Positions 46,701-60,100 of a DNA stretch of 64,000 nucleotides are shown one piece after another (the first letter of the stretch is position 1; the number at the start of each line of letters is the position of its first letter). The position numbers and the translations under genes are program-made. The notes beneath the pieces are model-generated. The model made no database searches, was not told the origin of the DNA, and saw nothing but the letters and a program-made list of their open reading frames with translations. Source of the stretch: Pocillopora damicornis (lineage: Eukaryota); NCBI RefSeq assembly GCF_003704095.1, contig NW_020846109.1:248001-312000 (forward strand), given 5' to 3'.

Positions 46701-46739
46701 TTCCATTTGCTCAGGTATCAGTGAGATCAATAAAGTAAC

Positions 46740-48187
46740 ATGGAGACAAAAGATATTGTAAAATGGTCCATGGTCGGTTTTTTCATCCTCTTTTTTTTTA
46801 CTGGCCTCTCTCTGCTCATTTTCGCTGTCACCGTATCAACGCCATTCGGAGACTACCTTACGATGAAAGCCGCCTCGTTCCCGGTGAATTATGGACTCAG
46901 AATTGGTCTTCTGATCCTTCTTTTCTTCATTACTGGGCTGTTTGTCTTTGCGGTAGTGAAAGAAAATAACAGACTTCTAACATTACTGGCCATCTTGTTC
47001 ATCATCTTGTTTCTTGTCGAGTTCATTATGGGAATAGTGTATTTTACGTTGAAGAATGAAATGATTGTCGTTAAAAAGAAACTTAGCAATGGGCAGCAAA
47101 TGCTGGCCGAGTATGGAAAGGACGAGAAAGTCACCAAGGCCTTCGATCAGATCCAGCAGACTTACGCCTGCTGTGGAATTGTTGACTATCGTGATTGGTT
47201 TACTTCAAAATGGGCAGCAGCTCAGGTTGGTGAAAATATTTGCTTTTTGTTTTCTAGACGTGTCTTTTGCTAAAATGTAACCCCAGTATTAAGACGAAGT
47301 TTAGGACATGTTATCCTCTTTGGAATTGTAGCTGAAGGTAATCATGAAGCGTGCACGCCCGAAATACGCCAACTTCCTACCACGTCCTAAGAGGCACTAG
47401 GCATTTTCCCATCTAAATTATGGCTACTAAATGCGTCCGAAATATGTCCTATAAATAGGCTAATATAATTGGTAGTAAACACGAGATTTTTGAGGTGTGG
47501 AATGATTTTTGTTTAGACTCGTATCATCCTTTCCATCAATTTCCGTATGTTTCTGATAGAGTTAAGTAGTAAAGCGCTTTTGTGCAGAGGAGCCGATACT
47601 CTTAGATCGGAAAAATAATCTCGTTCTCATCCAGGAGTCCCGCTGCTCCAGATTTGTATCTACCCCTTATTTGTGTCAGTTGTGTGCAATAAAGTCGGTG
47701 ACTATTTTTTCCTTAGGGGGTGAACAACAGGGTACCAAAGTCATGCTGTAAGTTCCCGACAGCCACCTGTGGTAATGATATGGACTTAAAGAACCCGATG
47801 GATTTCATCAATATATTAGGATGTACGGGACTAAATTTCGCCTACGATGACAAACTGCAAGTGGTGGGAGGGGTAGGTTTGGCTATCGGTTTTCTGAACT
47901 TATTCGCCCTATTGTGCTGCATCATATTCTGCTTCTGTTTCAACGCCGCGCGGGGACTTAGTCCTAAGGACGCCTTAAAAGGAGAGGAGCCTAATGACCA
48001 ACCGTCGTCGAGCTCATCGAATAAGGGCCGTCGACGTTCCTCAGCTCAAAGCTCATCAGGATCCTTGCGGCGCCAACCCTCTAAGAAGGCTCTGCGTGCA
48101 TCAAGGGAGGACCTTAATAATGACGAGAACGATGATGACTTACCCTCTTACTCAAATAAGGATTTACTCGATAAATCTGAAGGATAG
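46740..48187 (+). CDS. Tetraspanin; 2 coding exons (46740-47225, 47717-48187)
   Basis: Three N-terminal TMs, EC2 with QQTYACCG..YRDW, VPKSCC and a final GC before TM4, and Cys-rich juxtamembrane LCCIIFCFC. Phase-0 intron CAG|GT...ttag. Confidence 0.92.
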
Positions 48188-49049: not shown

Positions 49050-49059
49050 AAAAAAAAAA
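49050..49059 (-). terminator. RNA Pol III terminator (T10)
   Basis: Ten T residues on the minus strand, 3 nt after the tRNA discriminator base. Confidence 0.85.
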
Positions 49060-49062
49060 GGC

Positions 49063-49109
49063 TGCCGAGACCCGGGATTGTTCAGAGTTCATACGAACTC
49101 TCCGGTTTT

Positions 49110-49160
<51 letters not shown>

Positions 49161-49165
49161 TCGGC
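49063..49165 (-). tRNA. tRNA-Phe: tRNA-Phe(GAA) with a 30-nt insert in the T-loop (49078-49107)
   Basis: GCCGAGA TAGCTCAGTTGGGAGAGC G TCAGA CTGAAGA TCTGA AGGTC CCTGG TTCAA [30 nt] TC CCGGG TCTCGGC A. All four stems pair; the gene is 73 nt once the insert is removed. Confidence 0.93.
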
Positions 49166-49280: not shown

Positions 49281-52200
49281 ATGGCGCTTCCGACATTACA
49301 ACCGTACTGGCTGAAAAACTACAAAAACAGGAATGAGGGACTCCTTGTTCGGAGAACACAATTCGAAGCGGAAAGAAGGGAAGCTTGGGATAATAACGCA
49401 CGATATTTCAATAGATCTAACGTGGAGACTACCAAACAACGAGTGTGGGGATCAAGAGAATCTTACGAAGACAGGTGAGATCTGCAAGGATATTGCAAGT
49501 TTTATGACTTGAATGCGGAAATACGAACCTTGTTTTTTTATTTCTGCCCAGATTGACTATTTCATCAGTCATACTTCAGTCTTTGCCCTGGTATTTCCTT
49601 TATCTCATAGATCCAGTTCTGCCACTTTGAGAACTGGCATGTGTCGATCATGCATGGTCATATATTTATATAATCTCCTTGGTAACATTTCATGCCATTT
49701 CAACTTTACCACAACATAATTCAACACTTAGTCACTCCAGCTTACATAAATACGTTAGAGAAATTTGTATTCCCTGGGTAGTATCACATTCTTAGTGTAG
49801 TATCACATTATTTCAAGGGTATACTTTTCAGTCAATCACTAAGGAATGTCCTTAGGATGAACATCTCAAGTTATTCATGCGATCATTGAATTAAATGAAA
49901 TGTCAAACTTTTCAAGGGTGATTTAAGTCTTCTCCAGGGCCACATGAGTGAATGATATTTTGTTTTTAACAGCATGCAAGCACTGGATGGTTTGTACAAG
50001 GAGAACATGAAACAAGATAAACAGCAAAGATTAGATGGGAGGAAAAAAAGACTGTCTGAAATGTTGTTAAAGGAGACTAAAGAGTATGAGGTAAGGTGTA
50101 AAACAAGCTTAACTATTTGACTGTAGTGTAAGGTAGTGTTTTTTTTTGGTTTTCTGTAATTGAGACTTAAAGTAGATTTAAACCAAATCAATTAGTTCTA
50201 CTCACAGGGTATTTAAGAGTCTAGTTGGTGGTCAATTTGAGAGAAAGGGGAAATATGAACATTTGCCATGAGACTTGGAAAACTGTCAACTCTTTGATTT
50301 TGATCTTAAAGGTCATTTGTGTATTGAACAACCACAATAGAGCTTTTCATTTGCTTTTTAATTGAATCTCTAGGAAGAGCTTAAGGCAAAAAGACTTGGT
50401 GGAGCTGGTAGACTATTACAGATGAAAGAGAGGTTTGTAATGTTAAAAAAGAAAACTTGCTTTGATCATCTGTGATGTTTGTAGTAAACATGTCCTGCTG
50501 TTTAAAGTTGCTTACTATGTTGTCACTGGATTAAATTTTCATGAAGTGAACTTTTCTTCCCAGGGCTGATGAGCTAAAAGCTGACAAGGAAGCCAGAAGA
50601 AAAGAAGTATGAGCTTTATCATTATTTTAACTTGGATAGTGTATGTTAGGGTTTGGGAATAAACATTTGCACATTAGATAAGTCATACACTCAGATTAAT
50701 GACACTTACAAGACATCATTCAACAGCATGAAGTTCCCCCACAATGCTCCAAGGTATTGCTTCTGATTGCATTATTTTGTACAGATATGTATACTTATTT
50801 TTTGATTTAGCTATGTTTAGCCATTATTGTATTCTGTGCATGAATGAGGGTCTCAAGAAACCAAGCAGTATCATTTATTTTTGACGATGCACTAATTGAA
50901 CTTTCTTCTCAGATTGCTGAACAAAAATTGTATGATCATTGGAAACAAAATGCCGTAGAACTTAGAGAGGTGAGCATTCATAGTGATTGTTGAGTGCAGA
51001 GATATTTAATCAATAAGTACTGATCATTTTAATTGGAAATTCAACAACTTCTTGCACCAGCATTGTGATATTTTTTTGTTGAACATGGTGATGGTCTGCT
51101 TGCAATGAAGACACAAGATCAAGTGATGATCATGCTCTTTTTTGTACCCTGTTATGTAGTTCTCTGGTGATAATCTGATGGCCTTCTCATTATACTTTAC
51201 ACGGTACTTCTGATGCTTCATTTCCTATTGAAAATCCTGGTTATTTGATAATTTATTGTCTTTTCTAATCCCCATCACTGTAGATTGAAGCTGACCAGCT
51301 CAGAGAACATGTAGTGAACAGCTGGGCTGATCAAGTGTCTGACCGGGAAGAGGTAGGGACTGTCATGTAACCTTGCTTGAATTTCTATTCCAACTGAAAC
51401 ATTTTTTAAAAGTAATTGTCAAGGATGGAGCTGAGGAAAATTTCAGTGGATGAACATATTGCATCTAGCAGGATGGGCCTTGAAAGGAATAGAGATTAAA
51501 AGCAGGTGATGGATAGGTAAATTCCTGAAAAGTCTCATTCTGTTCTTATCTCATTGAATGGCTCTCCTCTTTTTCAATTTAGAACTTGAAGTCAGCAAGA
51601 CAAGAAGACAGAAGGTGTGTGTTTAGTTAATACTAGTAACTCAAGTCACCAAGTATTTAAGCTACTTGAAAGTGCACAGTATGTTTGGTAAGTTGAGGCA
51701 AGAACATATTCTCAGTTACATGTATCATTAAGCAATTTTCAATACTGTCAAAAACATGAAATTCAGGTTTGCATTTACCTCTTGACACTCAATCAAAATG
51801 CAACCAAGGAACAGGTTCACATGTAAAATGTGTACTGATTTTGTTTCCACTTATTGTTTCACAGAATGGATGCTGTTATGGAAAAAGATAGGCTACTTGC
51901 TCTTGAGAAAGAAAGAGCTAAGGAAGAGGAAAAGAAGAGGTTTATTTTAAAATAATGCTAACCTTAAATCTATTTACACTTATTTCAGGGTTTGTACCCA
52001 TCCTGGAAAACCTGAAAAATCCTGGAATTTTATTCTGTAATTTTCCAGGATTTAAAAGTCCTAAAGATTTCAAGATTTAAAGATTTCAGGTCTTAGAAAG
52101 TCCTAAAATTGCCTAAACTTGAGCAAGAAAGTTGTTGGAATTTAGGTTATAAGAAATGTATGTAGACCATAAGGAGAATAATTATTGATTTTGAAATCTA

Positions 52201-57176: not shown

Positions 57177-60100
57177 CTACTGCCAGTGCAGTTGTTTATA
57201 CCGGAAACTGAGTGTGGATCCGTCACCAGGCCTTAGATCATCCACACCCGTAGTGGCCGATTTTTCGTCCACATAGATCATCCAGTAAAATTTATCGACT
57301 GGTCTGCGTTGGACACCACAGATAGACGTCACCGAGTTGCCGTAGGAGGTTTTTTGGGTGGTGAATGCGTAACAAGAATTTTTTTTGGCAGCTTCTTTCA
57401 GGATGTCATAAGCATTAGTGCCATTTGCTACTGTCACGCACTCAGTGGTTGGAGCTGTTTTTCCTTTGGTGTATTTGTTGGTGTTGACGAACTTCAGCTC
57501 AACGCAGACGGTTATATTCTAAGTCAATCAAAGGAAAAACACTCAGTTGTTTTTAATATTCTACAAATGTTTGGTTGCAATTTCAACAGAGTGAGTTATG
57601 ATATGTCACCGTTATTTCAGAGGTGTTAAATTTTAGTTATAAGCGGTCACCATATCACGATAGAGAGGAAGGTGATGGTGGGGACATAACAAAGATAACC
57701 CCTCCTGTCATGCCTCTCTCTGCGACTCAAACTAATAAACACGAAATGAATTTTTTTACCAATCTCACCTGTTGTTCTTGTTGATCTGAAAGGGAAAAAT
57801 TCAATTGCGTTAGAGACTTAAACTTGAGTTATTCACACAACAAAACCCATTTGAATTTAGAGAAGAGAAACCCAGTGCGTTTTATCACTCTTGCCGCACA
57901 AAAGCAAACAAACTTCAGGGGAGATTCCACTGGGAAGGAGAACAGGTGTAACTGCAGGTGGACAGAAGGCTAACGCGTCTGCACTTACAGCGGATTTGCT
58001 AAAGGTCGGTATGTAGGGTATAAAAGGTCACAACTTTTCCTGTAAAACACAGCTGTCAGTTACCTGATACGTCTGTAGTTCTGAGACACGCTATGTTTTT
58101 GACATCGTGGGGCAGCGCTCCGATCAAGGCTGGTGTGACATAAAGTGTGCTCAACAAGTTAATGAAGGATCCATCGGGTTTTTGACGAGACACGAGCCAG
58201 CGTAAAGTCGTCGAACACCTTTTTGTCTTCCATCCGGCTGCTAAAAGAGCCTAGACATGAAGAAATGTGATCAGTGTAAAAATTCACCCTACATATACAG
58301 TATGTTATGGAGCTGATTGATAGGTAGTGTGAAAAATAATCAATTGTCATTTGCGATCCAGGTTTGTCTTCTCATTCCTTAACATCTCGGTTCCCTGTTA
58401 ATTTATTCCAGTTTTGCGTTTTCAGAGCTTGAAGAAAATACATATTCAGTAAGACTCAAGCAGCTCAAGGGCAATTCTCTTCGACGCTCAAACTTCTTGG
58501 AATTTCGTGACTTAGCCCCTTCAAATCACAGAATATGAATTGTGTGACAAAACAAAAGACAATTGGCGTGATAGAGAATTAGAAACGTACTTGAGAGGCA
58601 AGAGCTGCCGTGACTTCGTTTTCCCCAAACGTGCTATCATTGATTTGAGCCTTAACCAACTTTCTACACCCCAAATTAACAGCTTTTTGGATCTTCTTTT
58701 CAAGTGCCTTCTTTTTCTGCCCTTTTATGGACTTCTTGATACAGGTTAACGCCATTATTTGCATTGCAAGCGTGTCGGCATGGTAACTGGCAGTGTGAGA
58801 TTCATTTTCTACTTTCTTCAGGATTTCGTTCACATGGCCAAGCGTCTTCCTCTCTAGAGGTGCGTTGCTGCTACAGAGAGCCATAACAGCTAGGCTGTAC
58901 TGAAAAGGGTGATTAAAACCCAACTGAGGGAACTTGGTTAGTTTGTCTTTCAGACTTTTTATCAAATTGAAATCATAAAAGTTGCTGGGGTCTTTGCACG
59001 TAGCCAACGCGCCGAGAATATACAATGCTACCCTACCCCCGGTCAGGGAACCAATGTCAGCTTTAATGATCTCCGCATTCAGATGCTCAGCACCAGTCTC
59101 CACAGAGTGACCAGTAAGACGCAGAGAGTTGAACGCAAACGCACTCACGTGACCCAATCCGTAAGTGCCATTTTCGTCTTGTTCATTCCTTAACCATTCG
59201 GCAGCTCTGACGGCCGCGCGCGTGATGCTTGTTCGCAGGAGTCTGGTACCTGAAACGCGTCAAGTGTCAATAATGAGCTACAGCTTAGAAATGAGGCTAT
59301 ATATCACGATCGACTGATTTCTGCGCTGTTAGAAAAAAGTCGCTTCTAATACTTCGAACACTGAGCACTATGACTTATGGTCACTCAGAACTAAACTGGG
59401 CAAAATTGATTTGAAAAACAAGCTGTGATGGAGTCTACCGTAAGCCTTTACACCGTAATTTCATTATGCATATTCTCCATACTGTTCATTATACATTTCC
59501 TAACATGCTCACAGGGAGAATTTGTTTACTGATCCAAAGTGATATCGTAAGGAAAAATTAGATGCTGGTCATTCTTAGGATTTAAAAGGTAAAGCGTGTT
59601 TAAGAAATCCATAAGGGGATAACTAACAATATGTTGAGTTGTGGTTACTGAAAATTAAGCTAATTGAAAGGTAACCTGCCAGAGTAAACTAACACCAACT
59701 GAGGCGCGAGAAAGAAAGCTGTAACGCAACTCTTATCCGTGACAGAGAAAGAATATTAATTATGTTATAAAGACAATGGACAAATTCTTTGTTTTACATA
59801 TAATGGGTTTAACAGCCCAACTTCACGCTTAGTATAATCAGTTCAGAGTCTATTTTTCCCTTTTTTTAATTTGTGTTTGTCTGTCAATTTATTTTTTTTT
59901 ATCTTTCGGTTTCGCTTTCAAGTGATTTTATTCTCCTCATTTTTGGCAGAATGGGAGAACAAAGGTTACTACCACACGCAGAGATGGAAAATAACTAGAA
60001 AAGTCATATTGAGATTTAGCTAACAAAATTTCTTTTGTACATGGTAAGAAAACTGCATCCCAGCTATCAACATCCAGGGAAAGAGAGTTTGAAGACGAGC

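Follow-up and report, generated by a model that had tools for sequence, protein, structure and literature searches.

How can a tRNA gene whose T-loop is split by an insert, right within the B-box, be transcribed and give rise to a standard tRNA? The question is raised by a tRNA-Phe(GAA) gene in the window, which is the 64,000-nucleotide stretch of DNA from the coral Pocillopora damicornis analysed here. Joining the two exons of this gene (Table 1) restores a tRNA-Phe of 73 nt in which the acceptor, D, anticodon and T stems are all complete. Its anticodon loop is uninterrupted, so the insert does not occupy the canonical 37/38 intron position. ARAGORN missed the gene in a scan of the whole window and gave two truncated tRNA-Phe calls elsewhere in the genome; the Rfam match to the window gene covers model positions 8–63 only. 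The bases flagged in the initial annotation are real: the minus strand reads CCCTGGTTCAAAACCGGAGAGT at 49118–49097, within which GGTTCAAAACC (49114–49104) fits GGTTCRANNCC and is the sole such match on either strand of the window. We regard it as reasonably probable that the insert is a non-canonical tRNA intron at 58/59, which would be cut by TSEN on a refolded T-arm, after which RtcB would join the exons.

Table 1. Coordinates of the tRNA-Phe gene, its parts and its neighbour in the window
Feature	Position	Strand	Remarks
tRNA-Phe(GAA) gene	49165-49063	minus	103 nt = 58-nt exon + 30-nt insert + 15-nt exon, then T10 run
5' exon, tRNA positions 1-58	49108..49165	minus	identical in 50/83 aligned rows
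Anticodon GAA	49132-49130	minus	
A-box, positions 8-19, intact	49147..49158	minus	from sequence; box positions as given in PMC3978253
30-nt T-loop insert, putative intron at 58/59	49078..49107	minus	register fixed by paralogues
Hybrid B-box, 7 exon bases + first 4 of the insert	49104..49114	minus	the insert supplies AACC in this copy and ATCC in the majority
Decoy T-arm, C50-G53 paired with insert +3..+6	49102..49116	minus	7-nt loop
7-bp hairpin within insert, +7..+24	49084..49101	minus	compensatory changes across copies
CTGAAY, insert -8..-3	49080..49085	minus	most conserved insert part
3' exon, positions 59-73	49063..49077	minus	native T-stem strand + acceptor strand
T10 run, Pol III terminator-like	49050..49059	minus	from sequence
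First coding exon, trichoplein (TCHP) gene	49281..49474	plus	head to head with the tRNA gene at 115 nt; synteny anchor

Thirteen tRNA-Phe loci were located in the coral genome (12 matches in a DNA search, nine with a 5' pattern and one extra decayed copy in neighbouring stretches). Twelve of them bear the T-loop insert and the remaining one runs into N; no insert-free Phe gene was found among these 13 loci of a draft assembly with gaps, where counts are lower bounds. A gapped pattern able to match an insert-free gene gave two genome matches and a looser one gave a single match, all likewise insert-bearing. The insert measures 29–30 nt in full genome copies and about 20 nt in two decayed ones. 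A pattern scan of metagenomes yielded a further 73 loci; since this pattern demanded a gap, insert-free genes are uncountable by that scan. Metagenome loci and genome copies together make 83 distinct rows, of which five (L027, L043, L059, L060 and L084) were dropped before all counts, leaving 78 copies (7 genome, 71 metagenome). The five are uninterrupted tRNA-Phe genes of another organism, followed by unrelated sequence with a conserved hairpin-like stretch downstream. The 78 copies hold 59 distinct inserts of 29–34 nt, with a length of 30 nt in 68 copies. At exon positions free of the search pattern, 38 of 2691 bases differ (1.4%), against 4–20% in the insert regions. A T-run lies at most 12 nt downstream in all 44 exon-perfect genes, and the distant copies L026 and L075 show compensatory acceptor-stem changes. 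Given the low exon divergence and these stem changes, the tRNA body is not decaying freely as that of a SINE or pseudogene would. Among the copies are a Phe tandem cluster of six in L146 (G000:C2744:486000-490002), which includes a copy with an anticodon-arm deletion, one with a changed C32 and one cut by an assembly gap, and two loci (L035 and L093) in which the 5' half is replaced by anticodon-loop heptamer repeats and the insert is kept.

Comparison of the copies fixes the register of the insert at 58/59, as A58 and T59 do not change among the full genome copies, whereas the first and last insert bases do. Placement at 59/60, which would make the T-arm a copy of the anticodon arm, was rejected because variation affects the base following A58 but not T59, and because the helix would then stop 4 nt away from the junction. 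A register of 57/58 or earlier was likewise discarded, the final insert base being G in 6 of the 68 30-mers. Within the insert, the pairs of the 7-bp hairpin are kept in 52–57 of the 59 distinct inserts. In a covariation test on 24 sequences hand-picked for diversity, 19 cells showed two-sided change against 7.1 ± 2.5 in shuffles, and these changes fall at three pairs. The 3' end of the insert is its tightest part. All 44 exon-perfect genes have CTGA at -8 to -5 and A or G at -4, and 42 of them have a pyrimidine at -3; the B-box and decoy positions +1 and +3 to +7 are kept in 40 of 44 each. The conserved CTGAA (44 of 44, with one wobble) complements G53–A57. Beyond the insert, all 7 full genome copies keep the native strand TCCCGGG, while the decoy varies among them. 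A likeness of the insert to a hammerhead core or an IRE1 loop was also considered; by-eye comparison with these motifs gave no fit.

The first insert bases bear on transcription. The initial annotation held that the insert rebuilds the B-box, and this stands as a family trait, given that 70 of the 78 copies read GTTCRANNC and the consensus is present at positions 52–62 at family level; the AACC of the window copy itself is rare (2/78). Most copies (54/78) read GGTTCAAATCC, an 11-mer shared with ordinary Ala and Thr genes of this coral. Seven of the eleven letters belong to the exon, so that only four are supplied by the insert, and a random 4-mer would reach the score of AACC in 5.7% of cases and that of ATCC in 0.6%. 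With 12.2 bits, the window box lies just below the 17 ordinary B-boxes of this genome (12.9–18.0), a range reached by 60 of the 78 copies against 4.8% for a random start. Conservation of AACC among orthologous inserts, proposed earlier as a check, was not borne out, as the copies beside trichoplein read ATCC (L033, L055 and L085) or ACC (L075); all four retain the C at +3. This B-box C is absent in four exon-perfect genes, and its presence in 40 of 44 such genes compared with 25 of 29 decayed copies (p 0.7) is not an enrichment. As for the suggestion that selection keeps the gene transcribable, the B-box is indeed kept in the family, but conservation at C+3 does not exceed that of the adjacent bases, so that an effect of the B-box is not told apart from selection on pairing or from shared descent. 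The genome encodes the B-block subunit of TFIIIC (a PF04182 match over the cut-off). We consider it likely that the hybrid B-box is used.

The same five loci provide synteny. In the window and in L033, L055, L085 and L075, that is, in four distinct metagenome loci besides the window (L086 repeats L085), the tRNA-Phe gene and trichoplein stand head to head at 111–128 nt. The two genes form a conserved Pol III/Pol II divergent pair, a distant host included. The start of the L075 trichoplein is identical at 33–34 of 47 positions to each named stony coral and to the window, and the named stony corals and the window score 40–47 (of 47) against the other trichoplein loci. The acceptor stem of L075 differs from that of the window and is fully paired; that of L026 is similarly distant. 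Judged by these sequences, the metagenome copy L075 comes from a host that is further removed than any named stony coral. Because this host is so distant, the insert is likely older than stony corals, a dating that depends on one locus.

As to how the insert arose, a tandem duplication of the T-arm had been suggested, with CAA repeated at both insert boundaries. The first 16 nt of the commonest insert align with positions 58–73 of the tRNA itself (p 0.058); in the same uncorrected comparison, p drops to 0.025 when the L075-type exon is used and rises to 0.19 with the window copy and to 1.0 with L039. These values lend weak support to a duplication of the tRNA 3' end, whereas the route through CAA appears incidental: the repeat is seen in the window copy but is no family trait, with CAA at both ends in only 6 of 78 copies, and was rejected as a target-site repeat on the same count. 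The insert probably began, as far as the alignment tells, as a duplication of the tRNA 3' end plus trailer, which would have supplied B-box and decoy at one stroke, without separate invention. A retroelement origin was rejected, since the sequence after four primer-binding sites in the genome does not resemble the insert.

The 3' end of the insert suggests how the exons might be released. GAAY of the insert can pair with G53–C56 in 68 of the 78 copies and in 42 of the 44 exon-perfect genes, and when it does, each junction lies 2 nt past (3' of) the resulting 4-bp helix. The motif known as bulge-helix-bulge (BHB) is cut at a position within the bulge, namely 2 nt past the helix. The helix is only marginally enriched in intact genes (42/44 exon-perfect against 23/29 others, p 0.052). 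The flanking bulges measure 8 nt on the 5' side and 5 nt on the 3' side, different from the two 3-nt bulges of a strict hBHBh', and the 3' bulge becomes 3 nt only if G52 re-pairs with C60; the motif is thus at best a relaxed BHB, which in the strict form consists of a helix and 3-nt bulges (PMC10275265). In several respects the insert does look like a BHB intron: it interrupts a canonical cloverleaf, no uninterrupted gene was found in the draft assembly, and the 4-bp helix has the corresponding spacing from the junctions.

RNA runs and retroelements bear on the mature product. Among 22 RNA runs listed for the stretch, which carry the label coral metagenome, four were compared as contigs with insert, 3' exon and downstream flank, and these leave the gene uncovered; such contigs can drop out in filtering and are ill-suited to a 76-nt RNA. 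Retroelements copy their primer-binding site from a mature tRNA and stop at the methylated A58. Four exact 18-nt primer-binding sites in the genome match CCA plus positions 59–73, correspond to the 3' end of this exon version, and do not continue past 59. One of them directly follows an LTR-like 370-bp direct repeat of 88% identity, and a second site shares this repeat. As the sites end at 59, these genes likely yield CCA-tailed 3' ends; the joining of the exons is not thereby proven. The elements concerned fall into two small LTR-like families primed by tRNA-Phe (L160–L163; G000 C2564, C3216, C2498 and C4007). In one of these families, 7 nt that immediately follow the primer-binding site could also pair with tRNA positions 49–55.

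The enzyme that would act here is encoded in the genome. All four TSEN subunits (TSEN2, TSEN34, TSEN54 and TSEN15) were found, and either kind of catalytic subunit has a single gene; TSEN34 is a single frame and TSEN2 is seen as a TSEN2-like exon. A third catalytic TSEN gene was rejected, because the weak third match (E 0.17) sits among frames that we take to be amidohydrolase-like. The closest named relatives of TSEN34 are those of Oculina (62%), Desmophyllum (55%) and Acropora (46–49%), which marks the host as a stony coral. No coral-specific insertion in its catalytic domain was seen among 12 sequences, and the non-standard architecture of a broad-specificity endonuclease is absent. Three columns of the TSEN34 alignment, which we presume to hold the catalytic Tyr, His and Lys, are invariant. 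Eukaryotic enzymes can reportedly cut isolated BHB motifs, in work ascribed to Fabbri in 1998 and Fruscoloni in 2001. The catalytic triad is taken from PMC10275265, and the four-subunit TSEN of animals and fungi is described as cutting at 37/38 only (PMC10485636).

The present observations enable us to propose a putative pathway. TFIIIC would bind the hybrid B-box and thereby keep the gene transcribable by Pol III. The precursor would then refold such that G53–C56 pairs with GAAY, which would bring both junctions to 2 nt beyond a 4-bp helix. TSEN2 and TSEN34 would cut there without the usual ruler mechanism, and finally RtcB would ligate the exons into a standard tRNA-Phe. That the insert is excised at all is quite likely; if it is excised, there is a good chance that TSEN is the enzyme.

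The pathway can be pushed further. Corals and some wider anthozoans might make their sole cytosolic tRNA-Phe through dedicated T-loop splicing beyond standard TSEN, in which a new nuclease or TSEN mode would read the hairpin and CTGAA, and the first insert bases would serve as B-box in the DNA and as a stand-in T-arm in the RNA until the cut. We hold this to be unlikely; if true, Phe decoding would hang on one regulatable event. About as unlikely is excision by some different nuclease, or by a subcomplex of TSEN that has gained a new cofactor; either would read the hairpin together with the invariant CTGAA, and might do so on the decoy fold. It would account for the departure from a strict BHB and for the rarity of the central helix in folding models, as well as for the hairpin base and the near-constant 30-nt length, both tighter than a BHB requires; the ordinary look of this coral's TSEN also speaks for it. 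Against it stand the junctions, both spaced from the helix exactly as in a BHB cut, and the changes at -3, -4 and -5, which mostly preserve pairing. It is, moreover, a reading for which no candidate enzyme emerged. We keep to TSEN cutting a refolded T-arm.

That rarity emerged from ViennaRNA calculations on 51 precursors, in which the central helix had a mean probability of 0.05, as against 0.32 (decoy), 0.28 (native stem) and 0.26 (a further cross-pairing). The central helix exceeded a probability of 0.5 in 2 of the 51; the decoy outdoes it by about 2.6 kcal/mol and the native stem by 4. Of five models compared, hBH came out as the least stable, in a treatment of folding that ignores tertiary contacts and proteins. 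The T-arm mimic CTGG-TTCAAAA-CCGG described in the initial annotation does form in the unconstrained fold of the window copy, the whole fold having a z of only -1.2, and its probability reaches 0.93 once the acceptor, D and anticodon arms are fixed. That it competes with a BHB-like fold holds in these models but is not reflected across the copies, where the decoy undergoes no two-sided change; this covariation test has little power because the 5' strand of the decoy is fixed by the native stem. Inserts of 29 nt shorten the decoy loop to 6 nt.

The further idea that decoy and BHB-like folds form a selected switch or checkpoint gating the processing is quite unlikely, and we found nothing in its favour beyond the facts that the folds are mutually exclusive and within about 4 kcal/mol of each other, and that four decoy pairs are possible in 40 of 44 exon-perfect genes. 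The decoy is kept equally in decayed copies (27/29) and lacks covariation; the changes that do keep its pairs are all transitions, several of them at CpG, as expected anyway, and an origin by duplication accounts for the decoy without selection. With such an origin, the decoy would be a by-product or a folding aid.

If the insert were instead retained, the mature tRNA-Phe would use the decoy as its T-arm and carry the remainder as an additional arm ahead of the acceptor stem. With its 7-nt loop, the consensus decoy comes close to a canonical T-arm, it is the lowest-energy fold in 5 of 6 examples, and the spliced form is not seen in the contigs of the four RNA runs. We nevertheless judge retention very unlikely, for the native strand 59–65 is intact in the full genome copies in which the decoy decays, the decoy loop shrinks with the shorter inserts, and the primer-binding sites stop at 59. 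Elongation factor binds tRNA at the junction of T-stem and acceptor stem, and the extra arm would occupy this site. Least probable of all is that the inserts mark pseudogenes or a small repeat family and that the assembly lacks the functional, insert-free tRNA-Phe genes: the assembly is fragmented, one copy runs into a gap, several are decayed and the metagenome pattern was blind to insert-free genes, yet the low exon divergence, the compensatory stem changes in L026 and L075, the copies' own flanks, the constant T-run and the trichoplein neighbour in five loci all argue against it.

The insert appears confined to tRNA-Phe in what was surveyed. A pattern of the insert signature gave six Phe matches and two others, against one control match. 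Neither 44 ARAGORN calls of other isotypes nor a generic A/B-box scan, over 31 stretches, showed a further T-loop insert; the stretches were chosen around top Rfam matches and so favour intact genes. The Rfam tRNA matches of the genome are dominated by an abundant, decaying SINE-like repeat family resembling tRNA-Thr(GGT) (L095–L112, L134–L144). The window also contains long open frames at 46734–47270 and 47717–48184 on the plus strand and 58582–59259 on the minus strand; from their translations, we presume that they resemble a tetraspanin-type membrane protein and a cobalamin-binding (transcobalamin-like) protein. Two genes with anticodons unusual for eukaryotes, a tRNA-Ile with GAT (L125:1027-1101) and a tRNA-Asp with ATC (L131:2276-2347), are probably single-base variants or pseudogenes. 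In a Met/Lys cluster (L125; G000:C1122:405000-414999), six of six called tRNA-Met(CAT) genes have an insert of about 12–15 nt in the anticodon loop, where canonical introns lie; PMC12530127 lists four metazoan intron isotypes, and Met is not one of them.

In searches of openly available full texts, we found no report of a T-loop intron in corals or other animals; in the literature found, such introns are limited to archaea and algae. Archaeal introns (Thermoproteales, Nanoarchaeota and Asgard; PMC4090602, PMC4033280, bioRxiv 10.64898/2026.10.13.758758) share with the coral insert the position in the T-arm, the 4-bp helix with junctions 2 nt beyond it and an inner hairpin. The T-arm positions given there include 53/54, 56/57 and 59/60, compared with 58/59 in the coral. 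Unlike the coral insert, they are cut by symmetric, motif-reading endonucleases and have no internal promoter to keep; the coral signature pattern had no match in a prokaryote genome collection. The nucleomorph of Guillardia theta offers eukaryotic inserts in D- and T-arms, mostly without a BHB and with tRNA-Phe included, whose excision is described as confirmed (PMC4090602, PMC3728597). It is, however, a reduced endosymbiont nucleus with inserts of 3–24 nt and an enzyme reported as unknown. Elsewhere in eukaryotes, D- and T-arm insertions usually hit a single gene copy among many and are regarded as pseudogenes, according to PMC4090602, whereas all readable Phe copies of the coral are affected.

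The metazoan introns at 37/38 (Tyr, Ile, Leu and Arg; PMC12530127, PMC10485636) resemble the coral insert in being short and present in all isoacceptor copies, and in having intron bases that pair with a 7-nt tRNA loop and a BHL-like junction. The coral insert differs in arm and isotype; the acceptor-stem ruler mechanism cannot apply to it, and it interrupts the B-box itself, not the stretch that separates the two boxes. An essential animal tRNA with every readable gene split in the T-loop would break both the rule of 37/38 only and the confinement of metazoan tRNA introns to four isotypes (PMC12530127), and would make coral tRNA-Phe a natural substrate for learning how far TSEN works without its ruler. 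It is also a tRNA that standard annotation misses or truncates in corals.

A close parallel is the alga C. merolae, which likewise has short T-loop introns (four) in nuclear tRNA genes missed by standard annotation. Its T-loop introns are spliced, as demonstrated by RT-PCR (PMC3728597), whereas splicing of the coral insert is predicted from genes; the BHB motifs of the alga are strict or relaxed, and that of the coral is relaxed at best. Many isotypes are affected in C. merolae, and only Phe is seen affected in the coral. According to the report on the alga, TFIIIC box-binding subunits and Sen15 were not found there, in contrast to the four TSEN subunits and the TFIIIC B-block subunit of the coral. 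Transcription in C. merolae is ascribed to an upstream TATA-like element; in the coral the insert itself restores the B-box, which would represent one way to interrupt this element without losing it.
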